Part shown: one piece after another, positions 13,401 through 64,000 of the stretch | How positions within the stretch are numbered: position 1 is the stretch's first letter | How the letters are laid out: each line of letters starts with the position of its first letter | From: Leptogorgia sarmentosa | Lineage: Eukaryota | DNA: 64,000 bases | Direction: 5' to 3' | NCBI GenBank assembly: GCA_964658305.1 | Contig: OZ210885.1 | Span: 744,001 to 808,000, forward strand | Translations under genes and position numbers: made by a program | Notes under the pieces: generated by a model | Seen by the model: the letters and a program-made list of their open reading frames with translations, nothing else | Told to the model about the DNA's origin: nothing | The model's database searches: none

Positions 13401-16400
13401 TTCTTTTTGCAGTGACGTTGTGTTGTTCACGGAAACTGACGTGCACAGAACATCATCAGTCACGCCTTCTAATGTCGCTGGTAACAGTATCGACTACAGT
13501 TTTTACGTCAACTACCCCAATCAAAATGTTCCAATTGTTGGCAATATATTAGCATCGATTGTGAAATATGAATTGTTAAGAATGCAATCGGAATCTGCTC
13601 TTTTCTTCTCCCTGGAAACATCGTTCAGTCCTTATGCACCCTCGCCGCCAACATCAGATCAGTCCAGCAATACTGTACTGATCAGGATTTTTAATCAAAC
13701 GTCTACTGAGGTATGTAATCTTTATAATGTTTGCCCTCGTTTAAACGTATACCATATTCTGTTCCACACACGTATATTCGTCCCATATTCGTTAATTTTT
13801 CGTGTAAACATAAACAAACTCTCATAATAATGAGTAATGACAACTTCTGTTCAATTGACTTTTTCTAATTTCCTTGCAGTGGACGGCTATTAAAGACAAC
13901 AGATTCAGAAATTCAATATCAAACCAAGTTGGTGCTTATTGTTCAGATTGTTTGATTGCGTGCGTCCTAATGACAAGGTAATATAAAGACCGTAAAGTCT
14001 TAAAGTTCAGACAAACTGGCTAAGCGCTGAGTGCACGAGACATGTGATCATTGCTTCTGATGCAATATTTCCCAGAATATTATAGCGGCAATACCACATT
14101 ACATTTTAACTCCAAATATTGCTACCAAAATATACTTTCTACCAAATTGCCCTGATTATTCTGTAAAATAATGGTTTAAAATGAAATTGAATATATGTAT
14201 ATTATGTAATTTGTTAGGTATGCATTAGTTATGATTATGGTAAAATCAAGTATAAGTGACATGTTTATTAAATATTCTGTATTATTTTAGTGACCTGACA
14301 TCGTTCTCACCATCAAACGTGACTCGGAATCAAAGTTCCCCTGTGCAAGATGGATATCATGTCATTTATACTTTGTTTGTTGACTATCCATCTGGCAGTG
14401 GACCAATTCAGCAAAATTTACTGGCAGCCATTTTAACTATTCGACTTGAAAATATTGAGAACGAAACCAATATGAGACTTGAAATAATCACATCAATTCT
14501 GGCACCGTCTCCTCCTGCTGCCGACTCAAATAAAACTGACGAATCAGTAACCATGGTAGCACGTAATATTAATGCCTCGCAGGTAATTAACAAATATAAC
14601 TTCGTTGAGGCAATGAGACTGAATTACTTTTATTTCACGAAATATCTTGGAATCAGAAGTATACCAACTGTATACTGATTGTGAATACACCTCGAGGGAG
14701 CTCTGTATTCAATTATACTATTCTTTGTGTTCATTTGAGATAGTTCGTGGACGTTTCCACTGGTGATTTTATTCTGCATGCAATAAGTAGTATTCCCAAC
14801 ACCAATATAAAGTCTTCAAGGCTTCGGCCATATCAGCTATCACCTCATAGAAATCTGGAGTTCATAACCTAATTAAATTGTTTTTCTGTTTCAGTGGTCA
14901 GCCATTCAAGATAACAAATTCCGTGGGTATGTTGCCCAGGCAATTGGCGAATATTGCACAGCAAATGATGCACAACGTGATGAATGTGACCTTCCCACGT
15001 ACGTTTTTGACTAATTTATCTCATTTTATCACTTCCTATACTACTCCTGAATCTAGGAAATGGCTAATTTATTTTAATTTATTCATTTAGAAGAATTATT
15101 ATATCCTTAATATCTATATAATTATTCTTTGCCTGGCGTTTGTCGTTTGACGTTTGAACGTGTAGCTTAAACTCTCTAGTTATAATTCACATAGCGGAGA
15201 CGTTTGAAAATTAGAATTTCTCACCACAAAAGTATGTATGAATGTTTGCCGACCTCTTACTGTTGTTTTAATAAAGTTTTCAAATACTCGCGTTTTTCAT
15301 CCTTCCATATTATGCGACATTAGATGGCGTCACCATTTTTGAAGCTGCTCAAAGATTAAAAGATTATTTATTCGGTTGCATGACAAACAAGAAATTTCGG
15401 AAATATCACAATTTTTCTATTAGCTATCACTTTGTGGTTTTCAAAAAATTTGTGCCCGTAAATTTAGGCATCTTTCTGAAGTTAACGTTTCTTCACCTCA
15501 TTAAACACAGACGGTAGAAGTGACCTTTTTTGATAAAACTGAGTTGTTAATAATTCTTGATATCAGAATGAGTAAACTGCATGTAGTCAATGACAAAATC
15601 AAAATGCGGTAAAGTTGCACTCGCTACCTGAATTATAAAACAAGATGCAACGTTCTCTAGCTGGGTTCTTCGTCCGGAATTTGTGTGGGTGGTCGAGAGA
15701 AAGTACCCGTAATTTAAAACAAATGCACCACACATGTTAAAATAACATGTGACAAATTTAAAAGTGGTTGAACCAACAATGTATTAAGGCATCATATAGT
15801 TTCCTTTTTATTTCCAGGCCAAGAAGGAAAAAACGAGCTGCAACGTAAGTGCATAAGCTAACTTATTTCACTTCAAGAAACTAGTGACCTCCATGTTCTT
15901 TAAATTATACTACCACTGGGTGATATTGCCTCTTTTATACTTCCCAGAGTAACGTGGCAAAACTTTATGTTGTGCCTTCAAAACTGGGAGCTCATTTGCA
16001 TCCCCTCCCCTGATCTACCTTTACTCTGCATTCATATTTTATTCTCTTTAGAAATGACGCTTCGTTTACACAAGATCACGTCCAACGTGTCCCAGGTTCA
16101 CCCTCACAAGATGGCACTGATTCTGAAATCGAATTTTATGTTAATTATCCTGGTGGTGGTACAATGTCTAAGGAAATTTTACTTTTGATCATGAATGAGA
16201 AAACCGACTCTATTGCCAATAATACTGAAATGGCTCTTGTGTTGATAACTCCCGAATTTCCAACACCTCCTCCAGCAACACGCAGTCAAAATGAAAGCGC
16301 TGTCTCTGTTGTATTGAAGAATTTCCAAGTGGGCGAGGTTTGTTTGTCTAGAAATTAAAAAGAAGAAATTAGAAATTAGTGTCCGATCGACACTGTTGAG

Positions 16401-19400
16401 CTTCAAGTTTAAAAGCTCTGTTTGCATGCATCGTCTACACACTTACAATTTTTGCTGCGAAATTTCTATAGTACGGTTGTCTCCTTTTGATCGATGTAAA
16501 CGGGAAAACCAGTCACGAATTTTCCAGCGAAAACATGCACTTAGCGTGTTTGTTATCATTCTACTCAATCACATCATTCAGAATGAGAAAATCGTAAGCG
16601 CGGCTTTTGCCAGCACACAGTAATCAGAGTGATAATTTGTTGATAACCAAGTTTACCCTCACCTAACTCCCAGGCCGAATGACGTAATGGTAAAAAAGGT
16701 GAATACAAACAAAGCGTCAAGAAGAAATGTAAAACAATGTAAAATGTCCAAATTTTGGATGAGATAAACGATAGCTGTAACGACAACTATAACAATGTCA
16801 ATATGTAGAGTGACGTTAACTTATTTCAAACTTGCCTGTTCTTTTAGTGGCCTGCCAGAGATTTGCCGTTCCGACAGAATATGGCCAAAGAAATTCAGGA
16901 CTTTTGTAGCACTTATAACACTCTTTGTAACATCACAGTGTGAGTATTGTAATATCACAGCATTATAGACATCGTTTCTCAATTCCGAGCAAGTCTCATG
17001 GTTGCAGGTTCTTACGTATTATATACTATACTGTAACAGCAAATGTAAGAACAAGTTGTTAAATTTAACATTAATTACAAATGCTCGTGTGAGTTAATTT
17101 TCATAACATTACTGAATCACTTTTTCCATTAATTCGTGTTGTTCAGATCTGTGTAGTTGTACATAATTACTCCCTTTGTCAGCGATATTCGTTTCTCTTT
17201 CAGTGACGACCTGAACAGCCTCACAAGTGCTGACATTCAAAGACTGCCAGGTTCTCCAACACAAAATGGCACCAATTCAATCCTCAAATTTTACGCACAG
17301 TTGACAAGCGGTAGAGTTATTCCTAAAACCATCTTGGCCACCATCTTCGTAGAAAGACGGGAAAAAATATTTTCACTTGACAGCAGTCTGGAAGATTTCA
17401 CAGAAAGTTTTACATCTGATGAAACAGTTCTTACTGCAGAACAACAACAAAATACAGTTCCTATTAAATTAATCAACTTTCCTCGTTCAAAGGTGAGTGC
17501 AGCAGCTCTGGGATGGTTGATTTGTTGGTGTTTGAGGTGTATACGTATTTCTGATTTATTCAGTCCCATTTTTCGCAAAATGTGCCTTCTTATAAAACTA
17601 TGTTTGTCTGAAATGAAAAAAAATTCAATACAATTTTGGAAAGTTGTTTTTAATTTTGTTGACACAACCATGAGCAAAATTTGGTTTTGTGGTCATATAT
17701 TTTCTTAAGTATTTTTATTTATATATTAACGTTGAAAATTCAAGCCATTTTGTTAAATTACACTTCACATGAAATATATTTCATCGTGATTATGTTACGT
17801 TGTGTTCCCTTGCTAATATAGTTCACATCCTTGCGAAAGATGGATATCAAAGCGTCAGTTGCACGAAGAATGAATATCTTTTGCTTTACAACAGCTGCAG
17901 ATACGTGCGGTATTACAAGGTAGGCATATGTACAATCAATTTCTACCATTTTTAGAACATGAAATGCACAACAGGAATAAGATTTTGTGCAACAGATAAT
18001 GAATCTTGTTGTATGAAAATATAATTAGGTCTAATGTAATGGTGTCCTTCTTGTTAATAATTATTGAAGAATAATAAGTAAACTGCAGTCATTGCCGAAA
18101 TGAAAGTGATTGACGAACTCTGGGACGTTATAAGGCATCATATTTCTTTTTATTTCCAGGCCAAGAAGAAGAAAGAGAAATACGAAGTAAGTGCATCACC
18201 TAAATCATTACAATTTCAACTCGTGAAACTAGTGACCATTGGTTTTTCCAAAAACTTTAATATTAGTGACGGATCTTAATTGAATATAAAGAATGTGGTG
18301 TTGCGACAAAATAATGAAAGATGATAAATAACATTTTTCACTGGAAGAGTGTTCGTTCTACTTTGGTGTCAGTGTAGCAACAAGGCGGCAACGTCAAATG
18401 GTATATCTACTTCAACACTGAGGAGGTCTCGATATAACTATAACATTTGACATCGTTTTTTAATAAAAAAATCATAGCTAATCTTGCCATGTTATTGTAA
18501 GTACCAACCATCCGTCGATCTATACGTACAAGAGATAATAGATAACAGAAATAATACAGAAATAATAGATATATTATATACGTACTTCAATATAGCAGAA
18601 GCTCAGGGGCCGGTCAGTGTGCGAAAGTCGGATAACTTTATCCACTGGATAGTGATTTTTTTAACTGTTGTAAAAATGACGCACCATCTAGGATCTAATA
18701 AATGCAATTAAGATCTAAATCAATTACATCTCTAAAATGCTCACATGTATTTCCAGCAGTGAACAATTCAGTGAAAATGACGTCATAGTTACCGACTCCG
18801 TCATGGCAGCCGGAAATGATACAGTTATCAATGTTGTTGTGAACGAACCAGGAGAGAATAACTCAGTTCCAGCTAATATTGTTGAAGAAGCAATGCGTGA
18901 ATCCATTGAAACTGATAACACATCACTCATTACTGGTTTACAACTTGCTCTTGTTAATACACCGGAAGTAATTACAACCAATCAACGTTCCAACGCAGTC
19001 AGTGTTCGCTTACCAAACACTCAGGCGAGTGAGGTGAGTTGATTCATTAATCATTCAACGAAACTTCTCAAACAGGTAGATCAAAGATTGGGTGAACATG
19101 GCTATAAGGTTAATCCTCCCATACTTTAACAATTTGAGAATGGAATTATGGAAATAGTTTTAATCCTGTGTTATTATTTGCACTGAAATTAAACCATGTT
19201 GTTCAAATGAATACATTTTAGTGGCAATTTGAGGATGAAATATCATTCAGAGAAAATATGTCGGAAGCCATTAAACAATTTTGTGTAATGAGTGCGTTAC
19301 ATCTGGATTTGTGTGGCCTTACTAGGTATGTATAACTATTAAGGCATTATTAAGGGTTGCGATTGTTCAAAGTTCAATATTTGGCCATAACAAACGCTAA

Positions 19401-22286
19401 TTCCAACAAGGAGCAAAACGTCTACTCACACATAAATATGACACATTAAGTGTCGACGTTTCGAGCACTGATTCCCGATGAATGGCCTTAAAACGTCTAA
19501 ACGTATTGTGTCCCATCGTAGAACTTGTTGGTGATCTGGATCAATGTGAAGTTTTTATCTCTTTGGCGTTGTGAGATATACAGAAATATAATAATTATAT
19601 ACATGCACCAAGTAAAATAAATCAACATTAACTAAATTATCAGTTGAAAACTGAATTATCAGCCTGTATGTGCCATCTCCTTTATATCGTAGCTATATCT
19701 ATGCAGATCAACGTTTTCAGATGCTGTTGAGTTCTCCCTGCTAAGAGTTCTCCCTGCTAAACCGTTAAGGTTTTTGCATAAAATATAAGTGTGAAGAAAC
19801 GGCTTAACAAAATATTTCATTATAGTGCTCAAGTTAATGAAATCCAACCCTTGAATGTGAGGACATTGCCTGAATCTCCAAGTCAAAATGGAACAGACAC
19901 CATACTGTCGTTCTTCGTGGATCTGCCCAGTGGAACAACTATGCCTTTGGATGTTTTAACAACAATATTCAAGTCATCACCAAACATCCTTTCACAACCA
20001 AACAGTGTTAGCTCAGCAACAAGCGAAAACGTTAACCCTGTGCTTACAGATGCTGAGACTAAAAACCTCGTTCCATTGTCCATAAATATCCCAGCAAACC
20101 AGGTAAAATATCCCCAACATAATAAGTTTCTTCCAACTTTGGAATCAATATTTCGAGCTTTTATCGCCCATACTAGTTTTTTTTTTAAATAGATTTAGAA
20201 AACACGACGCGACGTCAAAGACCACGTGAGCATGGCGTGCGTTGCACATGTAGTGGACATGCCACGACAGTTGTATTTTGTCTTTGACGTCGCGTCGTGT
20301 TTTCTAAATCTAGCTAATGATGAACTAGAATTAAATTCTGTACAAATGGATATAAGATTTAGATAAGACGAGAAAATTTACTCCAATTAAACAAAAAAGT
20401 TTGACTGTTTCTCAAGAAGCTCGATTCCCATAATTATCATAATTATTCAAACCTGAAGCATTTTTTGCGCTTTAATTAACGCCGTTTTAACTGTTCATAA
20501 TTATAATTAAAGTGTGGTTTGTTTTTTGTTAAAAATATGTAGTAACGCTATTATAACAACACAATTATTGACCGTAATTATCGGTGAATGTTTCCAGGAC
20601 TTATACGGAGGATTTATTTCGACTTTGGTAAAATAATTATCGTTTTATAGCAAATTTCGGAAAAAAATACATTGCCTTTGGCATTGTCAGGAGAGGACAA
20701 TTTCAAAGTGACGACAAAATTCCATCACTGAAAACGTAAATAATTTTCAACTTACCAGCGCCCTAACACAGCATTTCAGTACAACGTTTACTAAAAATCT
20801 GCATGATTCATTGCGATATTTATTTTATGTTGGTTTGTTTTTGCTTTCCTAATCTACTTCAATTATTATCAAAATATCTTTCTTTCGTTTCAGGATGTAA
20901 GACTGGATATTCAGGTTTCAATAGCGCACAGACTCAATGAATATTGTAAAAACAATTCCCAAGCTGAACTTTGTCCCAGCAGTCGGTACGTGATATTATG
21001 ACACAACTAATGTTTTTGCTATAAACATAGGTAGCCCAGCGCACGCATGACGTAGTATTCATAATAATACTATACTAATGAATACTACGTCATGCGTGCG
21101 TTGGGCTACCCTATATGGTTATGAATGACAGTTGTTGTACATTTTAATACAAAAATGCACAGTGAGTTGTCATATGGAATATTGATTTGAGATGATAATT
21201 ATGCAATCATAATTATAATCTAATGATCAGAATTTTTGCCACAATGATCAGACAAGCCTGCCCTATCATGCCACCATTTTCAATTTAGCGAGGAGCGAGT
21301 GGTAAATAATAATAATGTTTTTACGAATACAACAGTGTACAAAATATATGTTTAGCATTAGGCTCGTTGACATTTGTAACTGAAAAATTAACATTTATAA
21401 AGCAATGTACAAAATATATGTTTAGCAATTAAGTTGCAAAACAGCCGGAAACAAAAAACCTGACCCGGCCTCACTTCAGAAAAATTGTGAGAAAGAGATA
21501 GGCGTATAGGTATGCACATTTTGTCTAATATTTCTATAATTTCTACGCTTATTTATTATTATATCAGGAACTTCACCAAAGATGATATTCGTGTTGTTAT
21601 TCATCGTAACAATGGCTCTGTCAGTTTTGTGGTCACTGATCCCGATACTGGATCAACACTTCCCGTGAACCAAATACAAGAAGCAATCAGTGGAAAGTTC
21701 AATTCCATAATTTACGGTCTACCACTCACAGTGTCTGCTAACGTTGATGATGAAGAAGATGAGGACTGGCCATTGATAATAGGATTAAGCATTGCTGGAG
21801 CATTTATGTTTTTACTTCTGATTGTTTCTGCGATTTATGTGTAAGTTCACTGTTTGTTTTTAACAATTTAAGAACGAGTCGCGTGTTTTTTATAGTGTAA
21901 TTATGCAATTAATGTTAGGAAATGTTTAAAACCATAAATTGCTTTACTTCTTCAAAAAGAAGAAGGAAAAAGCTTTGTTTTTTGTGTTAAAATTTGTCGA
22001 TACGATGAGATTCGATCTGTGTGCTGTTTTACATTACACACTGCGAAAATGTCACCTTTCTATCTTTTGTATCGACTAAAATGTTGTTTATTTATTTTTT
22101 AGCATGACAGTTCGTTCTGGCAAAGTACAGGGTAAAGTAAATCTAGGCTGGAGACGGTCTGTCTATTCTGGTCATTCTGATGGCGGTTGGCAATTCGACA
22201 GAAATTCACCATACACTGGGTCACCATTTTCAGAAATTGATGGTATACCCGGCTTTGATGCTGATGGTCTGCCATCAAATATTTAG
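1173..22286 (+). CDS. Gene A (5'-partial, spliced): mucin-4/SUSD2-like type I membrane glycoprotein: VWD C-terminal region, cadherin/Ig-like domain, 7 EGF, 9 SEA-like modules, TM, cytoplasmic tail
   Basis: Frame-consistent GT-AG exons: 1173-1427, 2105-2304, 2396-2726, 4179-4304, 5728-5850, 6181-6318, 8048-8170, 9107-9235, 10268-10377, 10616-10719, 11205-11502, 11948-12060, 12648-12942, 13093-13196, 13413-13710, 13880-13977, 14291-14582, 14895-14998, 15818-15844, 16052-16337, 16848-16939, 17204-17492, 17822-17919, 18160-18186, 18757/18760-19033, 19222-19325, 19826-20102, 20894-20985, 21568-21840, 22103-22286 (TAG). Nearly all have a counterpart in gene B. Confidence 0.88.
2105..2726 (+). CDS. 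Gene A exons: cadherin/Ig-like domain (NNVPVF...ATDADGDPLTF) plus two EGF-like domains
   Basis: N-x2-P-x-F and A-T-D-x-D-G-D cadherin-like motifs in 2105-2304; CVNGGEC...CNCPVGRTGEFCE and a second 6-Cys EGF in 2396-2726. Confidence 0.85.
3387..3641. mobile_element. MITE, family with ggggccggtt...aaccggcccc TIRs
   Basis: TIRs plus internal inverted tttagcttaaacggtggata/tatccaccgtttaagctaaa; relatives at 8543, ~12349 and ~41221. Confidence 0.75.
4179..9235 (+). CDS. Gene A: five phase-1/1 EGF exons, four with the calcium-binding consensus
   Basis: 4179-4304 DINECSS, 5728-5850 DVDECNG, 6181-6318 ALLECPRE, 8048-8170 DINECATT, 9107-9235 DIDECFEG; 6-Cys spacing with C-x-N/D-x2-G-S/G-Y-x-C-x-C. 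Confidence 0.9.
4587..5475 (+). mobile_element. Non-autonomous dispersed element (5' hairpin, 3' end ...atataataaa) with a nested GC-richer insert
   Basis: Hairpin 4601-4730 (acacgg..aagatatgaatttt / aaaattcatatctt..ccgtgt); absent from the equivalent gene B intron. Confidence 0.55.
4762..5062 (+). repeat. Degenerate minisatellite-like array of ggggcc(a/g)ttttggccc motifs
   Basis: About ten imperfect copies of gggcc(a/g)tttt(g)g; resembles subterminal repeats of a DNA transposon end beginning cacacagtaaaaag. Confidence 0.7.
6337..6769. mobile_element. MITE with ~36-bp perfect TIRs (agagaccttaagattgacgttttctctcgtttcccgc), flanked by AAT on both sides
   Basis: TIRs read directly; AAT at 6334-6336 and 6770-6772; absent in the gene B paralogous intron. 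Confidence 0.85.
8543..8786. mobile_element. MITE, ggggccggttgttcgta TIR family
   Basis: ggggtcggttgttcgtagcctgtttagcctaaacggcggataagtc ... gacttatccgccgtttaagctaaacggcgtacgaacaaccggcccc. Confidence 0.8.
8817..8928. repeat. Perfect 42-bp inverted repeat with a 28-nt spacer (foldback remnant)
   Basis: 8817-8858 is the exact reverse complement of 8887-8928. Confidence 0.9.
10268..21723 (+). CDS. Gene A: nine tandem ~135-aa SEA-like modules, each a short phase-0/2 exon plus a long phase-2/0 exon
   Basis: Short exons (10616, 11948, 13093, 13880, 14895, 16848, 17822, 19222, 20894) share W-x6-7-F-R-x2-V/I-A/S...F/Y-C-x5-13-C. Long exons share V-x-R-L-P-G-x-P...F-Y-V...L-A-x-I...N-S/T-V-x-I. The repetition is seen directly; the SEA fold is inference. 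Confidence 0.75.
12349..12555. mobile_element. Degenerate copy of the 8543-8786 MITE family
   Basis: gccggttgttcgtagccg ... ttttggacttatccaccgtttag; internal sequence similar to 8543-8786. Confidence 0.6.
15818..15844 (+). CDS. 27-nt microexon encoding a furin-type site (T)PRRKKRAA(T), gene A module 5
   Basis: tttatttccAG|gccaagaaggaaaaaacgagctgcaac|GTaagt; phase 2/2, frame-preserving; R-x-K-R consensus. Confidence 0.8.
18160..18186 (+). CDS. 27-nt microexon encoding a furin-type site (R)PRRRKRNT(N), gene A module 7
   Basis: tttatttccAG|gccaagaagaagaaagagaaatacgaa|GTaagt; phase 2/2; equivalent position to 49953, 54729 and 59505. Confidence 0.82.
20190..20312. mobile_element. Short MITE-like element with perfect 33-bp inverted arms
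   Basis: tagatttagaaaacacgacgcgacgtcaaagac / gtctttgacgtcgcgtcgtgttttctaaatcta. Confidence 0.8.
21028..21113. repeat. Short palindromic MITE-like element
   Basis: ggtagcccagcgcacgcatgacgtagtattcat / atgaatactacgtcatgcgtgcgttgggctacc, one mismatch. Confidence 0.8.
21568..21840 (+). CDS. Gene A exon: end of module 9, acidic juxtamembrane stretch and transmembrane helix
   Basis: ...NVDDEEDEDWPLIIGLSIAGAFMFLLLIVSAIYV, a ~24-residue hydrophobic run; donor gt|GTAAGT at 21841. Confidence 0.88.
22103..22286 (+). CDS. Gene A terminal exon: cytoplasmic tail ending ...DADGLPSNI*
   Basis: Polypyrimidine tract plus AG at 22101-22102; phase 2 matches the TM exon; stop TAG at 22284-22286. Confidence 0.7.
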
Positions 22287-22700
22287 TCGAATCAACATGA
22301 ACTGCACAAGAATAATTAAAACAGCACATCTCAGTCTTCTATATATATCACAGCAAAATAATATCAAAACTATATCCATCCTGCCATGGTTACAGTCAAT
22401 CCATCCTGCCAATAACAGCACCATATCAATTGTATCATCTACTGGGCGTATAAAGAAAGTTGAGCCTTTGAAGTGAAGTAAGTAGCGGAAGTACTGTTAT
22501 ATTGTCGCAACTACTACTTTTATTGATAGCCCTATAATTGCTTGTAATGAATGCATGTGTAAAAGCACAAAATCATATACACATTGGAGAAAACTAAGAC
22601 GACATGTACGTACAAAATAACTTTTTAAGCAAAATTATTGTTCAAAGTATTTTTTCCGGGCAGAGTTGATATTGATTGATTTAGAGCTATCAAGTGACTA

Positions 22701-46200: not shown

Positions 46201-49200
46201 CTTAATATTCAAGCCACGCAGGTAATTAACAAATATAACTTTGTTGAGGCAATGAGACTGAATTACTTTTATTTCACGAAATATCTTGGAATCAGAAGTA
46301 TAGCAACTGTATACTGATTGCGAATACACCTCGAGATAGTTCGTGGACGTTTCCACTGGTGATTTTATTCTGCATGCAATAAGTAGTATTCCCAACACCA
46401 ATATAAAGTCTTCAAGGCTTCGGCCAGATCAGCTAACACCTCATAGAAATCTGGAGTTCATAACCTAATTAAATTGTTTTTCTGTTTCAGTGGTCAGCCA
46501 TTCAAGATAACAAATTCCGTGGTTATGTTGCCCAGGCAATTGTCGAATATTGCACAGCAAATAATGCACAACGTGATGAATGTGACCTTCCCGCGTACGT
46601 TTTTGACTAATTTATCTCATTTTATGACTTCCTATACTATTAGTGAATCTTGGAAACTGCGAATTTATTTTAATTTATTCATTATAAAAAAATATTATAT
46701 CTTTAATATCTATAAAATTATTCTTTTCCTGGCCGTTTGTCGTTTGACGTTTGAACGTGTAGCTTAAACTCTCTAGTTATAATTCACATAGCGGAGACGT
46801 TTGAAAATTAGAATTTCTCGCCACAAAAGTATGTATGAATGTTTGCCGACCTCTTACTGCGTAAAAAAATGTCATTGAATCACTTGATGATTCTGTTTAT
46901 CACAATATTTCGTGTTGTTTTGAGCTAACTTTTGCGATAAGGTTCCATCCATCAGTTCACATTAGACAGTAATCTGAAACCTAAAATCTTTGTTTCAAAG
47001 ATCGTGATGCAACAATCGACGTCGTTTGATGCCCATCCATCAATTCATGTCGCTTGGGAAGCGATTTGAACACCCATTCTTTTAATAACGTTTTCAAATA
47101 CTCACGTTTTTCATCCTTCCACGTTACGCGACATTAGATGGCATCACTATTTTTGAAGCTGCTCAAAGATTAAAAGATTATTTATTCGGTTGCATGACAA
47201 ACAAGAAATTTCGGAAATATCACAATTTTTCAATTATCAGTTTGTGGTTTTCAAAAAACATATTCATTCCTCTCATTCGCACTAACAATCTCCCTCGCCA
47301 TATCTACCTTTACTCTGCATTCATATTTTATTCTCTTTAGAAATGACGCTACGTTTACACAAGATCACGTCCAACGTGTCCCAGGTTCACCCACAGAAAA
47401 TGGTGATGATTCTGAAATCGAATTTTATGTTAATTATCCTGGTGGTGGTACAATGTCTAAGGAAATTTTACTTTTGATCATGAATGAGAAAACCGACTCT
47501 ATTGCCAATAATACTGAAATGGCTCTTGTGTTGATAACTCCCGAATTTCCAACACCTCCTCCAGCAACACGCAGTCAAAATGAAAGCGCTGTCTCTGTTG
47601 TATTGAAGAATTTCCAAGTGGGCGAGGTTTGTTTGCCTGGGCCATTAATTTTACAATCGCAACTTTTGATGCAATTTAATTCTATTTAATTGTCCTTTTG
47701 ATGGAAGCAACCTCATGGCTAAGAACTCGATGTAACTTTTCGATGTTCCAGTTACGCGTTTTTACACGTTGCTACGTGTACGCATGTAAAATTCTAAACC
47801 CCTCATTAATAAAATATATTTAGAAACACATACTACATCATTTAAAGTATGAGATGCTTTACATTTAAATCAATTTCAAGTTTTTCGTGCATACACGTTA
47901 CACGTACGTAAAAAAACGCGTAATTGGAAAAGAGCCTTTAGGCTGAAAATTTCAAGTTCATTGATACAAAAACGTAAAATCATTGAATTACACGAGCAAA
48001 GGCTCCAAGGGCGAGCGAATGACTTAATAGTAATAATGTGAAAATGGTGAATAGAAACCATTAAACGGCAAAGTGAAATATTAAAATGTTTTTAAAAGAC
48101 TCGCGCGATATCTGCAGAGTGGCGTTAATTTATTCTAACATTGTACCTTTAGTGGCCTGCCAGAGATTTGCTGTTTCGACAAAATATGGCTAAAGAAATC
48201 CATGACTTTTGTAGCACTTCAGATTTCCATCGTACTCTTTGTAACATCACAAAGTGAGTATTTTGGATACGTCAGAAATACAACATTAGACATAGATCCT
48301 CAATTTCGAGCAATTGTAATGGTAAAAAATTATAAAAACTTTGTTATCGTTAATTTTGCTATCCTTTTGTCACTTCACCAATGGCATAATATTCCAGTGT
48401 TATTTGACTTCATTTCAATTCCGGTATTGCGTTCACCTGATTTGCATGCATTATAAAACTGTGTCCGCAAAATAGGCTATCTATTCAATGCTTGTACATT
48501 ATACTTTAACAGCAAATGTAAGACAAAGATGTTAAATTTAAAAATAATATGCAATTAATTACAAATCTTAGCAAACAAATTCTCGTGGGAGTTAACTTTC
48601 ATAACTTCCCTGAACATATCAATCAGTCCTTCCCTAATTTCTTGTTGGATCTGTATAATTGTCAGCGATATTCGTTTCTCTTTCAGTGACGACCTGAACA
48701 GCCTCACAAGTGCTGACATTCAAAGGCTGCCTGGTTCTCCATCACAAAATGGCACTAATTCAATCCTCAAATTTTACGCACAGTTGACAAGCGGTAGAAT
48801 TATTCCTAAAACCATCTTGGCCACCATCTTCGTAGAAAGACGGGAAAAAATATTTTCACTTGACAGCAGTCTGGAAGATTTCACAGAAAGTTTTACATCT
48901 GATGAAACAGTTCTTACTCCAGAACAACAACAAAATACAGTTCCTATTGCAATAATTAACTTTCTTCGTTCAAAGGTGAGGTAACAAGTCTGAGAGAAGT
49001 TACAATTATATTTGTCGGTCATAATTAAATTTGGCCGATGTTTAGCGAATGAATCTTGTTTTTCTACGTCGCGTATTTACGATGAACTCATGAAAGTGTT
49101 CACAAATCCTTTTGCATGGCGTACCTGCATAAGTTGTTTTCTTTATATCACTTCAAAATTTTAGTTTTAATGTTCATATCATGTGCTGCTATAACTATTT

Positions 49201-52200
49201 ATCGACAATACCAAAATTGTCAAAATTTTGTCAGTACCATATTAGGCTTGCAGCGGTTAGCTTTACGTTATTGTTGTCACAGCAAAAATGGACAACGTTT
49301 TGCAAATAATGATTGAGCAGGATTAAGCAATGTTTTGCTGCCTACAGTAATTGTTCACAGTTATTTTGTTATTGCCACGCCCGATTCAGTCCCAACAATA
49401 ATTTGTTGACAACCATGAGCAAAATGTGGGCAGTCAAACGCTGTTCAATCCTGTTTTACTGCAGACTGAAAATTTTGGTTTGTAGGATATATACATTAAA
49501 AATTGAAGGTATTTCCTCAATTACACTTACGTGAAGTATATTTTATTTAAATTATATGTTCCCTTGCTGTAGTTCACATCCTTGCGAAAGATGGATATCC
49601 AAGTGTCAGTTGCACGAAGAATGAATATCTTTTGTTTTACAACAGCTGCAGATACGTGCGGTATTACTAGGTAGGCATACAATCACTGTTCGTAGCCTAC
49701 TATTTTTAGAACATGAAATGCACAAAGCGAATAAGAGTTATGACCGTATGAAAATCTGATCATTGTTACGTATGTTTCCTTCTTGTTAATAATTCTCGAT
49801 ATCAGAATGAGTAAACTGCATTTGGCTAAGTTCTTCGTCCGGAATTTATGTGGTTGGTCTAGAGAACAAGTTAAAGTAACATGTGACAAAATTAAAAGTG
49901 GTTGAACCAACAATGTATTAAGGCATCATATTGGATTCCTTTTTATTTCCAGGCCAAGAAGAAGAAAACGGGCTGCGACGTAAGTTATTTCACTTCGTGA
50001 AACTAGTGGCCATCCCTGTTCTTTAATATGAAATAACTAATTATGCGGTGTTAAGACAAAAAAGATACATATCATTTTTCACTTGCAAAAACCACTAACT
50101 ACTCTAAGCGTCTACTTTGTTGAAAAAATAGAAACAAGGCAACAACGTAATGATAATTATACACTTTAACCCTCCCAATTACCTATTACGCATAAACCCC
50201 GCATATCAACATGAGCTATCATGCTTTAGAGAAAGGTCACGGTAGATAAATATCTGGAGAGCTGACAAAGGTTCCATCTGACCACATATGCAGTGACTGC
50301 AGTTACATAAGCTCTTCCCATTAAGAACTCTGTCTTACACTTTAAAATTACTATTACGCTCCGTCCATGCAATAAGTAGAATTAACAACTAAATGAACTA
50401 TCTCTCTAAATCCTCGTATATATTTTTGGCAGCGATCAATTCAGTGATAATGACGTCATAGTTACTGGCGTCATGGCAGCCGGAAATGATACAGTTATCA
50501 ATGTTGTTGTCAACGAACCAGGAGAGAATAACTCAGTTCCAGCTAATATTGTTGAAGAAGCAATGCGTGAATCCATTGAAACTGATAACACATCACTCAT
50601 TACTGGTTTACAACTTGCTCTTGTTAATACACCGGAAGTAATTACAACCAATCAACGTTCCAACGCAGTCAGTGTTCGCTTACCAAACACTCAGGCGAGT
50701 GAGGTGAGTTGACTCATTAATCATTCAACGAAACCTCTCAAACAGGAAATCGATTGGGAAAAAATCCCCAATGTGAAAGCGCGCAGCAATTTTTTCATGA
50801 AAATTGAACTTGTTATGGAATTAGTTTTAATTCTGTATTATTATTTGCATTGAAATTAAACCATGTTGTTCAAATGAATACATTTTAGTGGCAATTTGAG
50901 GATGAAATATCATTCAGAGAAAATATGTCGGAAGCCATTAAACAATTTTGTGGAATGAGTGCGTTACATCTGGATTTGTGTGGCCTTACTAGGTATGTAT
51001 CATTTAAGGAATGACAATGAGCTCTTCGGGCGAGTGTTTCCACACATTTATCATTTCCTCCCCAGCAAAGTAATTTTGGTTTCTTTTGCAACTATATCCT
51101 GCACGTATCGGAGTTTGTTGCTGCGGAAGGAAATGCAATCACACATGTTATTGTAAATCGTATCCGCGTCACTCCAACATTATGTTACAATGTTTTGTCC
51201 AGATCAAATGGAAATTTGTCAACAACAAACAAACTGGTGTCAAATTGAGGACTGATATTGTTCCTTAATTCTGATAGTGTTCGGTCCATCGCGTTTATGG
51301 TCAATTTGAGCTGTATGCATGTGGATCAACTGCTCTTGAGTTTCCCTTGCTTCTCGATATCAACCTGGAAAAATACGGCTTACAGCAATATCTCATTATT
51401 TCATTATAGTGCTCAAGTTAATGAAATCCAACCTTTGAATGTGAGGACATTGCCTGAATCTCCAAGTCAAAATGGAACAGACACCATACTGTCGTTCTTC
51501 GTGGATCTACCCAGTGGAACAACTATGCCTTTGGATCTTTTGACAACAATATTCATGTCATCACCAAACGTTCTTTCACAAGCAAACAGTGTTATTTCAG
51601 CAACAAGCGAAAACCCTGTGCTTACAGATGCTGAGACTAAAAACCTCGTTCCCTTGTCCATAATTATCCCAGCAAACAAGGTAAAATATCCCCAACAGTT
51701 TCTTCAATCAGTTTCTTTCAACTTTGAGATCAACATTGCGTGCTTTTAATGTAATTAACTTTAGTACATAGAATTCATAAGGAATCCTTCAAAAAATCTC
51801 AAACAGAAAAGGGTGAAAAGTTCAAACGCGTCTCATGTCGAAATGCGTTCAAATTCCACATGTCGAGGAAAAAATGACCTCATTTTCCTTGATTTCGGAG
51901 ATAACATTTCCCTATTTGTTCAAAGATTTGTTCCTTTTTTTTACATTCGAGCAAACATCCTACTCCTCCTCCACCTCCTCCTCCTTAGACCCGCTTTAAT
52001 GTAGTGCATGAATGACGAATCCATCAGGCTTTCTAAATGAGTGTTCATGCTGACTGAAAAAAACCTCAGAATTTAAAACTTATCAATTGGATGAACTTTA
52101 ATTTTATCGCCATATACACGTTTTGTTTTGGGTTTTTTCAGGATGTAAGACTGGATATCCAGGTTTCAATCGCCCACAGATTCAATGAACACTGTAAAAA

Positions 52201-55200
52201 CAATTTCAATGCCGAAATTTGTCCCAGCAACCGGTAAGTATTAGCAGGACATTTTAATACCAAAATGCATAGCGATGGGGAATGGATATTTAATTGAAAC
52301 GAGATGCAATCATCTTATCTGATGATGTTTTAAAAAACGACCATTTGCGGCTTGCCTTCACATTTTGCTTTTGTATTTTCTTAGTTTTTTATACTTGTTT
52401 ATTTTCTTTGATTTCAGGAACTTCACCAAAGATGATATTCGTGTTGTTATTCATCGTAACAATGGCTCTGTCAGTTTTGTGGTCACTGATCCTGATACTG
52501 GATCAACACTTCCCGTGAACCAAATACAAGAATCAATCAGTGGAAAGTTCAATTCCATAATTTACGGTCTACCTTATACACTGGAAGTTACAACCAATCA
52601 ACGTTCCAACGCAGTCAGTGTTCGCTTACCAAACACTCAGGCGAGTGAGGTGAGTTGATTCATTAATCATTCAACGAAACTTCTCAAACAGGAAATCCGA
52701 TTGGGAAAAAATCCCCAATCTGAAAGCGCGCAGAAATTTTTTTCCTGAAAAACGTAAAATCATTGAATTACACGAGCAAAGGCTCCTAGGGCGAGCGAAT
52801 GACGTAATAGTAATAATGAAAATGGTGAATACAAACAAAACGGGAAGGTGAAATATTAAAATGTTTTTAAAAGACTCGCGCGATGTCTGCAGAGTGGCGT
52901 TAATTTATTCTAACATTGTACCTTTAGTGGCCTGCCAGAGATTTGCTGTTTCGACAAAATATGGCCAAAGAAATCCAGGACTTTTGTAACACTTCAGATT
53001 TCCATCGTACTCTTTGTAACATCACAAAGTGAGTATTTTGGATACGTCAGAAATACAACATTAGACATTGTTCCTCAATTTCGAGCAATTGTAATGGTGA
53101 AAAATTATAAAAACTTTGTTATCGTTAATTTTGCTATCCTTTTGTCACTTCACCAATGGCATAATATTCCAGTGTTATTTGAGTTCATTTCAATTCCGGT
53201 ATTGCGTTTACCTGATTTGCATGCATTATAAAACTTTGTACCCAAAATAGGCTATCTATTCAATGCTTGTGCATTATACTTTAACAGCAAATGTAAGACA
53301 AAGATGTTAAATTTAACAATAATATGCAATTAATCACAAATCTTGGCAAACAAATTCTCGTGGGAGTTAACTTTCATAAGTTCCCTAATTTCTTGTTGGA
53401 TCTGTATAATTGTTAGCGATATTTGTTTCTCTTTCAGTGATGACCTGAACAGCCTCACAAGTGCTAACATTCAAAGACTGCCAGGTTCTCCATCACAAAA
53501 TGGCACCAATTCAATCCTCAAATTTTACGCACAGTTGACAAGCGGTAGAGTTATTCCTAAAACCATCTTGGCCACCATCTTCGTAGAAAGACGGGAAAAA
53601 ATATTGTCACTTGACAGCAGTCTGGAAGATTTCACAGAAAGTTTTACATCTGATGAAACAGTTCTTACTCCAGAACAACAAAATAATACAGTTCCTATTG
53701 CAATAATTAACTTTCTCCTTTCAAAGGTGAGTGTAACAAGTCTGAAATTAAATTTGTCCGACGTTTAGCGAATGAGTCTTTCATTCATGTTTTTCTATGT
53801 TGCGTATTTACGATAAAAGTGTTCACAAATCCTTTTGGCGTACCTGCATAACTTGTTTTCTTTATATCACTTCAAAATTTTAGTTTTAATGTTCCTATCA
53901 TGTGCTGCTATACTATTTATCGACAATACCAAAATTGTCAGAATATTGTCAGTACCAAATTAGGCTTGCAGCGGTTAGCTTTACGTTATTGTTGTCACAG
54001 CAAAAATGGACAACGTTTTGCAAATAATGATTGAGCAGGATTAAGCAATGTTTTGCTGCCTACAGTAATTGTTCACAGTTGTTTTGTTATTGCCACGCCC
54101 GATTCAGTCCCAACAATAATTTGTTGACAACCATGCATGAGCAAAATGTGGGCGGTTAAACGCTGTTCAATCCTGTTTTACTGCAGGCTGAAAATTTTGG
54201 TTTGTAGGATATATACATTACAAATTGAAGGTATTTCCTCAATTACACTTACGTGAAGTATATTTTATTTAAATTATATGTTCCCTTGCTATAGTTCACA
54301 TCCTTGCGAAAGATGGATATCAAAGTGTCAGTTGCACGAAGAATGAATATCTTTTGTTTTACAACAGCTGCAGACACGTGCGGTATTACTAGGTAGGCAT
54401 ACAATCACTGTTCGTACTATTTTTAAAACATGAAATGCACAAAGCGAATAAGAGTTATGGCAGTATTAAAATATATTTAAGTCTGATCATTGTTACTATG
54501 TTTTCTTCTTGTTAATAATTCTTGATATCAGAATGAGGAAACTGCATGTAGTCATTGACAAAATCAATGCTACGTTTTCTGGCTAGGTTCTTCGTCCGGA
54601 ATTTGTGTGGTTGGTCGAGAGAACTAATACAAATGCAATACACATGTTAAAGTAACATGTGACAAAATTGAAAGTGGTTGAACTAACAATGTACTAAGGC
54701 ATGATATTGGATTCTTTTTTATTTCCAGGCCAAGAAGAAGAAAACGAGCTGCGACGTAAGTTATTTCACTTCGTGAAACTAGTGGCCATCCCTGTTCTTT
54801 AATGTGAAATAACTAATTATGCGGTGTTAAGACAAAAAAGATACATATCATTTTTCACTTGCAAAAACCACTAACTACTCTAAGCGTCTACTTTGTTGAA
54901 AAAGTAGAAACAAGGCAACAACGTAATGATAATTATACACTTTAACCCTCCCAATTACCTATTACGCATAAACCCCGCATATCAACATGAGCTATCATGC
55001 TTTAGAGAAAGGTCACGGTAGATAAATATCTGGAGAGCTGACAAAGGTTCCATCTGACCACATATGCAGTGACTGCAGTTACATAAGCTCTTCCCATTAA
55101 GAACTCTGTCTTACACTTTAAAATTACTATTACGCACCGTCCATGCAATAAGTACAATTAACAACTAAATGAACTATCTCTCTAAATCCTCGTATATATT

Positions 55201-58200
55201 TTTGGCAGCGATCAATTCAGTGATAATGACGTCATAGTTACTGGCGTCATGGCAGCCGGAAATGATACCGTTATCAATGTTGTTGTCAACGAACCAGGAG
55301 AGAATAACCCAGTTCCAGCTAATATTGTTGAAGAAGCAATGCGTGAATCCATTGAAACTGATAACACATCACTCATTACTGGTTTACAACTGGCTCTTGG
55401 TAATACACCGGAAGTAATTACAATCAATCAACGTTCCAACGCAGTCAGTGTTCGCTTACCAAACACTCAGGCGAGTGAGGTGAGTTGACTCATTAATCAT
55501 TCAACGAAACCTCTCAAACAGGAAATCGATTGGGAAAAAATCCCCAATGTGAAAGCGCGCAGCAATTTTTTCATGAAAATTGAACTTGTTATGGAATTAG
55601 TTTTAATTCTGTATTATTATTTGCATTGAAATTAAACCATGTTGTTCAAATGAATACATTTTAGTGGCAATTTGAGGATGAAATATCATTCAGAGAAAAT
55701 ATGTCGGAAGCCATTAAACAATTTTGTGGAATGAGTGCGTTACATCTGGATTTGTGTGGCCTTACTAGGTATGTATCATTTAAGGAATGACAATGAGCTC
55801 TTCGGGCGAGTGTTTCCACACATTTATCATTTCCTCCCCAGCAAAGTAATTTTGGTTTCTTTTGCAACTATATCCTGCACGTATCGGAGTTTGTTGCTGC
55901 GGAAGGAAATGCAATCACACATGTTATTGTAAATCGTATCCGCGTCACTCCAACATTATGTTACAATGTTTTGTCCAGATCAAATGGAAATTTGTCAACA
56001 ACAAACAAACTGGTGTCAAATTGAGGACTGATATTGTTCCTTAATTCTAATAGTGTTCGGTCCATCGCGTTTATGGTCAATTTGAGCTGTATGCATGTGG
56101 ATCAACTGCTCTTGAGTTTCCCTTGCTTCTCGATATCAACCTGGAAAAATACGGCTTACAGCAATATCTCATTATTTCATTATAGTGCTCAAGTTAATGA
56201 AATCCAACCTTTGAATGTGAGGACATTGCCTGAATCTCCAAGTCAAAATGGAACAGACACCATACTGTCGTTCTTCGTGGATCTACCCAGTGGAACAACT
56301 ATGCCTTTGGATCTTTTGACAACAATATTCATGTCATCACCAAACGTTCTTTCACAAGCAAACAGTGTTATTTCAGCAACAAGCGAAAACCCTGTGCTTA
56401 CAGATGCTGAGACTAAAAACCTCGTTCCCTTGTCCATAATTATCCCAGCAAACAAGGTAAAATATCCCCAACAGTTTCTTCAATCAGTTTCTTTCAACTT
56501 TGAGATCAACATTGCGTGCTTTTAATGTAATTAACTTTAGTACATAGAATTCATAAGGAATCCTTCAAAAAATCTCAAACAGAAAAGGGTGAAAAGTTCA
56601 AACGCGTCTCATGTCGAAATGCGTTCAAATTCCACATGTCGAGGAAAAAATGACCTCATTTTCCTTGATTTCGGAGATAACATTTCCCTATTTGTTCAAA
56701 GATTTGTTCCTTTTTTTTACATTCGAGCAAACATCCTACTCCTCCTCCACCTCCTCCTCCTTAGACCCGCTTTAATGTAGTGCATGAATGACGAATCCAT
56801 CAGGCTTTCTAAATGAGTGTTCATGCTGACTGAAAAAAACCTCAGAATTTAAAACTTATCAATTGGATGAACTTTAATTTTATCGCCATATACACGTTTT
56901 GTTTTGGGTTTTTTCAGGATGTAAGACTGGATATCCAGGTTTCAATCGCCCACAGATTCAATGAACACTGTAAAAACAATTTCAATGCCGAAATTTGTCC
57001 CAGCAACCGGTAAGTATTAGCAGGACATTTTAATACCAAAATGCATAGCGATGGGGAATGGATATTTAATTGAAACGAGATGCAATCATCTTATCTGATG
57101 ATGTTTTAAAAAACGACCATTTGCGGCTTGCCTTCACATTTTGCTTTTGTATTTTCTTAGTTTTTTATACTTGTTTATTTTCTTTGATTTCAGGAACTTC
57201 ACCAAAGATGATATTCGTGTTGTTATTCATCGTAACAATGGCTCTGTCAGTTTTGTGGTCACTGATCCTGATACTGGATCAACACTTCCCGTGAACCAAA
57301 TACAAGAATCAATCAGTGGAAAGTTCAATTCCATAATTTACGGTCTACCTTATACACTGGAAGTTACAACCAATCAACGTTCCAACGCAGTCAGTGTTCG
57401 CTTACCAAACACTCAGGCGAGTGAGGTGAGTTGATTCATTAATCATTCAACGAAACTTCTCAAACAGGAAATCCGATTGGGAAAAAATCCCCAATCTGAA
57501 AGCGCGCAGAAATTTTTTTCCTGAAAAACGTAAAATCATTGAATTACACGAGCAAAGGCTCCTAGGGCGAGCGAATGACGTAATAGTAATAATGAAAATG
57601 GTGAATACAAACAAAACGGGAAGGTGAAATATTAAAATGTTTTTAAAAGACTCGCGCGATGTCTGCAGAGTGGCGTTAATTTATTCTAACATTGTACCTT
57701 TAGTGGCCTGCCAGAGATTTGCTGTTTCGACAAAATATGGCCAAAGAAATCCAGGACTTTTGTAACACTTCAGATTTCCATCGTACTCTTTGTAACATCA
57801 CAAAGTGAGTATTTTGGATACGTCAGAAATACAACATTAGACATTGTTCCTCAATTTCGAGCAATTGTAATGGTGAAAAATTATAAAAACTTTGTTATCG
57901 TTAATTTTGCTATCCTTTTGTCACTTCACCAATGGCATAATATTCCAGTGTTATTTGAGTTCATTTCAATTCCGGTATTGCGTTTACCTGATTTGCATGC
58001 ATTATAAAACTTTGTACCCAAAATAGGCTATCTATTCAATGCTTGTGCATTATACTTTAACAGCAAATGTAAGACAAAGATGTTAAATTTAACAATAATA
58101 TGCAATTAATCACAAATCTTGGCAAACAAATTCTCGTGGGAGTTAACTTTCATAAGTTCCCTAATTTCTTGTTGGATCTGTATAATTGTTAGCGATATTT

Positions 58201-61200
58201 GTTTCTCTTTCAGTGATGACCTGAACAGCCTCACAAGTGCTAACATTCAAAGACTGCCAGGTTCTCCATCACAAAATGGCACCAATTCAATCCTCAAATT
58301 TTACGCACAGTTGACAAGCGGTAGAGTTATTCCTAAAACCATCTTGGCCACCATCTTCGTAGAAAGACGGGAAAAAATATTGTCACTTGACAGCAGTCTG
58401 GAAGATTTCACAGAAAGTTTTACATCTGATGAAACAGTTCTTACTCCAGAACAACAAAATAATACAGTTCCTATTGCAATAATTAACTTTCTCCTTTCAA
58501 AGGTGAGTGTAACAAGTCTGAAATTAAATTTGTCCGACGTTTAGCGAATGAGTCTTTCATTCATGTTTTTCTATGTTGCGTATTTACGATAAAAGTGTTC
58601 ACAAATCCTTTTGGCGTACCTGCATAACTTGTTTTCTTTATATCACTTCAAAATTTTAGTTTTAATGTTCCTATCATGTGCTGCTATACTATTTATCGAC
58701 AATACCAAAATTGTCAGAATATTGTCAGTACCAAATTAGGCTTGCAGCGGTTAGCTTTACGTTATTGTTGTCACAGCAAAAATGGACAACGTTTTGCAAA
58801 TAATGATTGAGCAGGATTAAGCAATGTTTTGCTGCCTACAGTAATTGTTCACAGTTGTTTTGTTATTGCCACGCCCGATTCAGTCCCAACAATAATTTGT
58901 TGACAACCATGCATGAGCAAAATGTGGGCGGTTAAACGCTGTTCAATCCTGTTTTACTGCAGGCTGAAAATTTTGGTTTGTAGGATATATACATTACAAA
59001 TTGAAGGTATTTCCTCAATTACACTTACGTGAAGTATATTTTATTTAAATTATATGTTCCCTTGCTATAGTTCACATCCTTGCGAAAGATGGATATCAAA
59101 GTGTCAGTTGCACGAAGAATGAATATCTTTTGTTTTACAACAGCTGCAGACACGTGCGGTATTACTAGGTAGGCATACAATCACTGTTCGTACTATTTTT
59201 AAAACATGAAATGCACAAAGCGAATAAGAGTTATGGCAGTATTAAAATATATTTAAGTCTGATCATTGTTACTATGTTTTCTTCTTGTTAATAATTCTTG
59301 ATATCAGAATGAGGAAACTGCATGTAGTCATTGACAAAATCAATGCTACGTTTTCTGGCTAGGTTCTTCGTCCGGAATTTGTGTGGTTGGTCGAGAGAAC
59401 TAATACAAATGCAATACACATGTTAAAGTAACATGTGACAAAATTGAAAGTGGTTGAACTAACAATGTACTAAGGCATGATATTGGATTCTTTTTTATTT
59501 CCAGGCCAAGAAGAAGAAAACGAGCTGCGACGTAAGTTATTTCACTTCGTGAAACTAGTGGCCATCCCTGTTCTTTAATGTGAAATAACTAATTATGCGG
59601 TGTTAAGACAAAAAAGATACATATCATTTTTCACTTGCAAAAACCACTAACTACTCTAAGCGTCTACTTTGTTGAAAAAGTAGAAACAAGGCAACAACGT
59701 AATGATAATTATACACTTTAACCCTCCCAATTACCTATTACGCATAAACCCCGCATATCAACATGAGCTATCATGCTTTAGAGAAAGGTCACGGTAGATA
59801 AATATCTGGAGAGCTGACAAAGGTTCCATCTGACCACATATGCAGTGACTGCAGTTACATAAGCTCTTCCCATTAAGAACTCTGTCTTACACTTTAAAAT
59901 TACTATTACGCACCGTCCATGCAATAAGTACAATTAACAACTAAATGAACTATCTCTCTAAATCCTCGCATATATTTTTGGCAGCGATCAATTCAGTGAT
60001 AATGACGTCATAGTTACTGGCGTCATGGCAGCCGGAAATGATACCGTTATCAATGTTGTTGTCAACGAACCAGGAGAGAATAACCCAGTTCCAGCTAATA
60101 TTGTTGAAGAAGCAATGCGTGAATCCATTGAAACTGATAACACATCACTCATTACTGGTTTACAACTGGCTCTTGGTAATACACCGGAAGTAATTACAAT
60201 CAATCAACGTTCCAACGCAGTCAGTGTTCGCTTACCAAACACTCAGGCGAGTGAGGTGAGTTGACTCATTAATCATTCAACGAAACCTCTCAAACAGGAA
60301 ATCGATTGGGAAAAAATCCCCAATGTGAAAGCGCGCAGCAATTTTTTCATGAAAATTGAACTTGTTATGGAATTAGTTTTAATTCTGTATTATTATTTGC
60401 ATTGAAATTAAACCATGTTGTTCAAATGAATACATTTTAGTGGCAATTTGAGGATGAAATATCATTCAGAGAAAATATGTCGGAAGCCATTAAACAATTT
60501 TGTGGAATGAGTGCGTTACATCTGGATTTGTGTGGCCTTACTAGGTATGTATCATTTAAGGAATGACAATGAGCTCTTCGGGCGAGTGTTTCCACACATT
60601 TCGAATTCTCCCAAACTTACACGAGTGTTTACGTAACTCAATGTAAACATAGGAAAATGTTTTCCGTTGTTTTCATAAAATAACAAGATGACAAACGCGG
60701 AATAACGGAATAGCGAGAAGCAGCGGGAAATAGCTGTGTTTACATAATCTCACATCAACACGGCTGTTAGCCAATCACACGCGTGTTGTCTTTTTCACTT
60801 ACTTCCGGTTATTTTATAAAATATATTATAATTAAAGGCATGGTACGAATTTTTTTAAAATCCAAGATATGGCCATATATCTCTCCGTGAAATTTCAATA
60901 TGTCGCTAATATCAACAAGCAGCAAAAGTTCTACTCACTACACTAAACGATACCTTAAAGTTCGAAATTTTGAGCACCAATTCCCGACGAATGGTCTTGC
61001 CTCAAATCTTTGAATCTTATTGTGTGGCTTGGTTAACTTTTACTGTTTTTTGATGATTGTTCAAAAGTCGATCAGCTGTCTGGATCAATATGAATTTTAA
61101 TTTCTTCCTTGAGGTTTTGAAATAAAGAAACTAAAATAATTAAAATTAACTATTCAATATCACCTCAAAATCGCAGTTAGTTTTTAGAGCTATTTCACCT

Positions 61201-63948: not shown

Positions 63949-64000
63949 GTGAGTGTAACAAGTCTGAAATTAAATTTGTCCGACGTTTAGCGAATGAGTC
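62970..64000 (+). repeat. Intragenic tandem unit copy 4 (truncated by the window end)
   Basis: Matches 57524-58554; exons 63150-63250 and 63660-63948. Confidence 0.92.

Follow-up and report, generated by a model that had tools for sequence, protein, structure and literature searches.

Microexons encoding a predicted furin-type site in the SEA-like stalk modules of two tandem MUC4-like octocoral genes, and their likely copying between modules

The 64,000-nucleotide stretch of Leptogorgia sarmentosa DNA analyzed here (contig OZ210885.1, positions 744,001 to 808,000 of the forward strand; henceforth the window) contains two tandem paralogous genes, A and B, both on the + strand and both encoding a MUC4-like NIDO/VWD/EGF membrane protein. 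After the EGF repeats, each gene presents a stalk of nine modules, each built from two exons, the short one running from phase 0 to 2 and the long one from phase 2 to 0, and five 27-nt microexons encoding a polybasic motif are found within these modules. We consider it probable that the microexons are real, are likely included by default, and add a convertase site to a loop of the SEA-like modules, and that module 7 has long had the exon, whereas module 5 likely received it as a copy, together with about 360 bp of intron.

An earlier note on this DNA, made from the letters alone, had proposed the five segments, their phase (2/2) and their peptides. All are present as described (Table 1), with tttatttccag upstream and gtaagt downstream. 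Their placement was also correctly described: each lies in the phase-2 intron separating the short and the long exon of one module, and the reading frame of both stalks is stop-free both with and without the microexons. Gene A carries the microexon in modules 5 and 7, and gene B in module 7 only. Although the five copies all exist, they amount to three distinct types, because the three gene B copies (49953, 54729 and 59505), spaced 4776 bp apart, derive from one recent 4,776-bp tandem repeat and are not independent. The motif R-x-K/R-R is kept through codon changes, as had been claimed: three of the six codon columns that vary among the five copies are fully synonymous in the coding frame, against 0/5 and 0/6 in the two remaining frames.

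The + strand of the window has 52 AG..GT segments that are 12-45 nt long, keep the frame and have a pyrimidine tract, and R-x-K/R-R is encoded in exactly the five microexons; on the - strand it is encoded in 0/23 such segments. Chance splice-like segments are thereby ruled out as the origin of the signal. For its training, a splice-site matrix used the window's other exons, which belong to these genes (38 acceptors, 38 donors); a scan with it yielded nine candidates on the + strand, five of which are the microexons, and one on the - strand. The microexons score 9.3-10.8 at their acceptors and 8.5-9.7 at their donors, mid-range or better among the ordinary exons of these genes. Three 44-nt AG..GT segments in gene B (49465-49508, 54187-54230 and 58963-59006) also have good splice scores; they would shift the frame if used, and are possibly pseudo-exons.

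Searching with a profile of 18 long exons returned 134 proteins, most of them being read-throughs of a single exon whose breaks fall at one common intron position. The named homologs belong to the octocorals Xenia sp. and Paramuricea clavata, in addition to a distant Lingula protein. The Xenia RefSeq gene models share the same nine-module stalk and contain RRKKR at the module-7 junction in 5/5 copies (P0139, P0140, P0141 twice, and P0083); these copies represent three loci, two of the models being isoforms of one locus, and the two isoforms listed are identical at the microexon site. For LOC124445696, the alignment of the proteins predicts that RRKKR would occupy an exon of 30 nt. The motif is absent from module 5 in all three Xenia models covering that module. 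The earlier warning that gene predictors may miss such an exon is reasonable, yet they do not always do so, since the Xenia RefSeq models contain the motif.

A metagenome scan found two loci, L001 and L002, both intronless. The exons of gene A recur in order in L002, at 76-90% identity. Between its module-7 short and long exons stand 24 nt reading SRRKRAV, and the joints coincide with the junctions of the window; its modules 8 and 9 are free of any insert. Because introns are absent, we infer that L002 is transcript-derived, from a close relative. L001 starts just past the microexon site and is uninformative, and L002 leaves the module-5 junction uncovered. A microexon is a very short internal exon, of 27 nt or less, that is spliced into mRNA: the segments in the window are 27 nt long, and L002 has a 24-nt counterpart joined at these junctions, for module 7 of the relative. 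Judged by this comparison, the microexon is a real separate exon, spliced in at module 7 of the relative. Scanning metagenomes with module-5 patterns returned 179 stretches, none confirmed as a relative's module-5 locus, and gene A of the window is the sole place where the motif was observed in module 5.

The long exon following the 18160 microexon has a NAGNAG acceptor, at 18757 or 18760; gene B has the distal AG only at that position, and L002 aligns with the distal AG. On L001, an intronless open reading frame of 538 amino acids (2525-4141, - strand) with a cytochrome P450-like heme motif, recognized by eye, lies tail to tail with a paralog of the mucin-like gene.

The AlphaFold2 model of the L002 module, obtained with a 91-row alignment, has a mean predicted local distance difference test score (pLDDT) of 66 and a predicted template modelling score (pTM) of 0.59. 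It presents a strand, a long helix (residues 20-40), the motif loop, and then strands, a helix and a strand; the motif occupies residues 51-57, in a low-confidence loop after the helix. The top fold match with VIA-align is the membrane-adjacent domain of PCDH15, with Z = 9.2 (root-mean-square deviation (rmsd) 4.0, 107 aligned) and Z = 8.8 (rmsd 3.1, 103 aligned), followed by CELSR1 (Z = 8.0, rmsd 2.1, 92 aligned). Lower matches are a Nup54-type domain and CDH23 (7.6), and IA-2, Gpr126 and a protease SEA domain (Z 5.0-5.7; 5.6 for Gpr126 and 5.0 for the protease SEA domain with VIA-align). Foldseek ranked ACE2 chains first (E = 3e-4) with the same model. A profile search of solved structures by sequence gave a single weak match (E = 0.27), and the single-sequence fold of P0083 had a pLDDT of only 38. 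PCDH15, CELSR1 and the other top matches are here taken to be divergent SEA domains. On the evidence of the model, the stalk modules are SEA-like, with an alpha/beta sandwich of the ferredoxin-like type, and the matches to PCDH15, CELSR1 and Gpr126 agree with the SEA-like label the earlier note had given them. The autoproteolytic SEA motif of the MUC1 type (GS followed by three hydrophobic residues, between strands 2 and 3) is absent from the alignment of the 18 long exons. In the membrane-proximal module 9 (21568-21840), strands 2 and 3 are separated by GSVSF, which faintly recalls the autoproteolysis motif GSVVV; this GSVSF is present in L001 and not in L002, P0136 or Xenia.

All five copies encode R-x-K/R-R, and those of gene A stand upstream of the transmembrane exon, which places them on the luminal side of a secretory-pathway protein. 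The KR end is invariant and is followed by small residues (AA, AV, AI, NT, EA), which fits convertase sites. The polybasic motif, which matches the furin consensus as had been proposed, is thus a predicted furin-type convertase site in a predicted flexible loop, a view suggested by the model and by analogy with KIAA1549, in which furin is described as cutting a SEA-like domain in the loop that links helix 2 to strand 2, with cleavage shown (bioRxiv 10.1101/2025.08.18.670743; PMC13570299). Distant relatives also have basic residues in this loop: the Lingula protein has RLRPRR there, and the single-module membrane proteins P0132 and P0122 have SSRRRAL and RLRPRRAL, which by sequence suggests an old family feature.

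The module-5 copy of gene A lies in a block of intron homologous to the module-7 introns. The module-7 introns of A and B are collinear on both sides of this block, and their identity is 74% within it and 74% upstream of it. Given this equality, the block is likely native to the module-7 introns, with module 5 of gene A holding a younger copy from a B-type donor. The module-5 block is 91% identical to module 7 of gene B and 76% to module 7 of gene A, hence module 5 likely gained its microexon by copying. Among 163 four-way columns, module 5 of A agrees with module 7 of B against module 7 of A at 32, the two module-7 introns agree against module 5 at 6, and the two gene A introns agree against B at 1; the remaining columns are invariant (116), differ between the B copies (7), or differ in all (1). 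The module-5 intron of gene B is 92-94% identical to that of gene A, but 33 nt replace 554 nt. In a read-through protein of another species, P0001, the module-5 short exon is found in a shifted frame with 29/34 residues matched (shuffles gave at most 14), and is followed by a module-5 intron of about 195 nt in which the one place able to encode the motif lies some 40 nt ahead of the acceptor, a distance too short to accommodate an exon.

Three other accounts of the block were tried and rejected. Transposon carriage of the microexon is ruled out, given no repeat pair marks the block ends: neither terminal inverted repeats nor a target-site duplication were found there within 14990-16060. The module-5 block overwriting module 7 of gene B, as sole event, is ruled out by the undiminished identity between the module-7 introns of A and B inside the block. 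An assembly artefact is ruled out, since the empty module-5 junction of gene B and its repeat junction are both present in DNA contigs. These contigs come from three runs of one sample, span introns without splice joints and may be the assembly's own source; their depth is not a copy number, and they carry no information on expression.

According to the explanation we favor, the microexon would insert a polybasic R-R-(K/R)-K-R into the loop behind the long helix of a SEA-like stalk module, and a furin-type convertase would cut after KR in the Golgi. The two halves would remain bound within the SEA-like fold, as in Notch, mucins and GPR126, and the break point would, upon force or binding, free the outer stalk together with the NIDO/VWD/EGF head; furin-cut SEA halves are described as staying together until force separates them in the part of PMC6954182 cited here. 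The module-5 copy would have been made by a conversion-like or repair-templated transfer from a gene-B-type module-7 intron, and tandem duplication of modules 6-9 would afterwards have multiplied the sites in gene B. On this view, it would be gains and losses of the exon and duplications of whole units that alter how many cut sites there are and where they lie, and not a switch in splicing.

Several points weigh against this explanation. The evidence for inclusion comes from module 7 of relatives, and none from the window's own genes or from module 5 of any species. L002 is one contig, which can attest presence only, with its transcript origin deduced from the lack of introns, and the Xenia proteins are gene models, known here as protein sequences alone. 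The fold model of the L002 module is of moderate confidence only (pTM 0.59), and the Pfam SEA families were unmatched by nine gene A long exons and five spliced homologs, though divergent SEA domains often escape Pfam. Cleavage after the motif rests on analogy. As for origin, the P0001 test is one of codon compatibility from protein, not DNA. Moreover, about 95 and about 99 nt beside the block, within the stretch found only in gene A, match neither the module-7 introns nor gene B; as these flanks have no other counterpart in the window, a module-5 microexon may once have been present in gene B and been removed by deletion, instead of never having existed there.

The earlier note had proposed that cleavability is encoded by a separate cassette that splicing or exon gain and loss could switch. 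That the exon is separate is indicated by L002, and exon gain or loss does appear to decide which modules bear a site. The splicing switch fared less well: every spliced module-7 form seen includes the motif (L002, one contig, and the Xenia models, 5/5 copies), with no skipping form among them, in a sample that is small and drawn partly from contigs, which drop rare forms. We thus regard it as unlikely that the microexon is an alternatively spliced, regulated cassette by which cells choose between cleavable and intact modules, after the manner of the 13-residue furin exon of ApoER2. That precedent, as far as the cited part of PMC6213145 describes it, speaks for such a cassette, as do the symmetric 2/2 phase and length in multiples of three, given that skipping would keep both stalks open while removing the loop motif. 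Modules without the microexon occur naturally, so a skipped module should fold, and very short exons are often leaky. However, symmetry follows from the phase-2 intron location and does not imply skipping, the two Xenia isoforms are alike at the site, and the splice scores are at or above the middle of those of ordinary exons. There is also no UGC near the acceptor, and the neural microexon program is described as bilaterian in the section of PMC8797185 considered. Features of eMIC-dependent neural microexons were looked for in the five copies: TGC within 30 nt of the acceptor occurs in 0/5, the acceptors are mid-range, and the named homologs are octocoral.

It is comparably doubtful that the module-5 copy (15818) is a passenger of the intron-block copy, rarely or never spliced in, with only the module-7 exon functional. 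A spliced module 5 bearing the motif was observed in none of the species, gene B is without a module-5 microexon, and the block is recent, so that intact splice sites need not reflect selection. In the other direction, both splice sites were kept, with about 260 nt upstream and about 60 nt downstream of donor context, and the differences from the exons of module 7 of gene B are synonymous or K/R exchanges, though the numbers are small.

Rather improbable is the broader proposal that a portable cleavage cassette both hops between non-equivalent repeats by intron-block copying and is alternatively spliced without the bilaterian microexon machinery, so that soft corals would set the number of stalk break points by evolution and by splicing together. 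Most improbable is an expressed insert serving as a heparan-, glycan- or mineral-binding patch instead of a cleavage site: Arg/Lys clusters do bind polyanions and a MUC4-like protein is listed in the Acropora skeletal matrix (PMC3748352, in the part cited), but the invariant KR end with its small residues and a position equal to the cut loop of KIAA1549 fit a convertase site.

In comparison with known systems, the cited portions of the KIAA1549 reports describe a type I membrane protein whose SEA-like domains stand in tandem and in which a convertase motif is confined to some of them, that of SEA-like domain 3 being in the helix 2-strand 2 loop. Here, by contrast, the motif is on its own exon of 24-27 nt, in one or two of nine modules, and the likeness is one of position, not of demonstrated sequence homology. 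ApoER2/LRP8, as far as PMC6213145 is cited here, likewise has a small extra exon encoding a furin site, which releases the ligand-binding head; its exon of 13 amino acids is alternatively spliced and lies between domains, whereas the coral exon (8-9 amino acids) lies inside a SEA-like fold, has likely moved between repeats, and has no skipping seen so far. Notch and GPR126 are cut by a convertase within a ferredoxin-like SEA domain whose halves remain associated until force or binding, although, from what is cited of PMC6954182, the cut is between strands 2 and 3, while the coral site is one loop earlier. MUC4-like NIDO/AMOP/VWD/EGF proteins of Acropora millepora (the mucin-like skeletal protein B3EWY9; PMC3748352, in the part cited) and Xenia (LOC124445696, LOC124447171, LOC124445700) share the NIDO-like, VWD with GDPH, C8 and EGF regions, and in the three Xenia proteins the stalk likewise has nine modules and the motif in module 7; Pfam has no annotation for this SEA-like stalk, however, and the module-5 site is found only in gene A. 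In the open-access literature, judged partly by title, nothing was found on a furin-site microexon in corals or its transfer between repeats, and no precedent was found for exon gain by gene conversion of this kind. What is already known comprises furin sites in the loops of SEA domains, as in KIAA1549, Notch and GPR126, and the cassette exon of ApoER2 with its furin site; the new part is the movement of a furin-site microexon between modules.

The coordinates of the features are presented in Table 1. All 23 stalk-region exons of gene A and all 41 of gene B are bounded by AG/GT. In gene B, Pfam matched VWD (E = 8e-6), C8-3_MUC4 (E = 2.5e-14) and EGF-like exons, the GDPH site spans the 31485/31788 exon junction, and the NIDO match (E = 1.4e-4, one exon) is below the curated cut-off. 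No Pfam match to AMOP was found on exon 30966-31574, a homolog search with exon 30966-31571 found none among 1445 candidates, and Rfam gave 0 matches.

Table 1. Features of genes A and B in the window.
Feature	Coordinates	Strand	Remarks
Microexon, gene A module 5	15818..15844	+	Phase 2/2, T-PRRKKRAA-T; likely recent gain
Microexon, gene A module 7	18160..18186	+	R-PRRRKRNT-N; ancestral position
Microexon, gene B module 7, first unit	49953..49979	+	R-PRRRKRAA-T; bridged by DNA contigs
Microexon, gene B module 7, second tandem unit	54729..54755	+	PRRRKRAA
Microexon, gene B module 7, third tandem unit	59505..59531	+	PRRRKRAA; identical to 54729 copy
Intron block around module-5 microexon	15544..15905	+	~360 bp; homolog of the module-7 introns (identity 91% with gene B's, 76% with gene A's)
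Stretch of gene A module-5 intron	15449..16002	+	554 nt, absent in gene B
Matching empty site, gene B module-5 intron	47259..47291	+	33 nt, no microexon
Gene A	9107..22286	+	Part from last EGF exon on, with nine SEA-like modules, transmembrane and cytoplasmic exons; 23 exons, open frame
Gene A transmembrane exon	21568-21840	+	
Gene A cytoplasmic exon	22103-22286	+	
Gene B	29070..64000	+	NIDO-like, GDPH, VWD, C8 and EGF exons, then module stalk; runs off window
Gene B module stalk	39314-63948	+	41 exons, open frame
Gene B tandem array of module 6-9 unit	47968..64000	+	~97% identity; period 4776 for three microexon-bearing units; repeat junction in DNA contigs
Gene A module 5 short exon	14895..14998	+	Phase 0 to 2; helix ending in C..C
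Gene A module 5 long exon	16052..16337	+	Phase 2 to 0; strands 2-4 and next module's strand 1
Gene A module 7 short exon	17822..17919	+	End matches L002 junction
Gene A module 7 long exon	18760..19033	+	Alternative acceptor 18757
Gene B module 5 short exon	46491..46594	+	
Gene B module 5 long exon	47341..47626	+	
Gene B module 7 short exon, first unit	49573..49670	+	
Gene B module 7 long exon, first unit	50433..50703	+	

Some further observations were made on the two genes. The only other R-x-K/R-R in the stalk is RRLRR in module 3 (13093-13196, 44216-44319), inside a predicted helix and probably inaccessible. A further R-x-K-R motif, SRRWKR, precedes the GDPH site of gene B by about 10 residues (31455-31485 / 31788) and is absent there in the Xenia protein. 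The tandem-repeat junction of gene B forms hybrid long exons, with the start of module 9 and the end of module 7 (52418-52649, 57194-57425 and 62640-62871); in Xenia P0141, too, module 9 is followed by a second set of modules 6-7, but the junction looks different, so the cleavable unit may have multiplied independently twice. Intronic repeats include an inverted repeat resembling a miniature inverted-repeat transposable element (38-nt arms, 95% complementary, 57 nt apart; 20185-20317), other high-depth repeats near 14681-14718, 18618-18634, 21110 and 47746-47899, and a short tandem repeat with offsets of about 85 and about 171 nt in a gene A intron (4771-5045).

Given that SEA-domain furin loops and cassette exons with a furin site were known parts, the surprise of the finding is limited. 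It would nevertheless be a case, open to dating, in which a domain repeat acquired a site of post-translational processing at a single stroke, a ready-made exon and its splice signals having been copied into the same-phase intron of a sister repeat that is only about 23% identical in protein, the module-5 gain amounting to exon shuffling at the scale of one motif. For octocorals, it predicts the cut position in a surface mucin, and it bears on the shedding of mucus or skeletal-matrix proteins.

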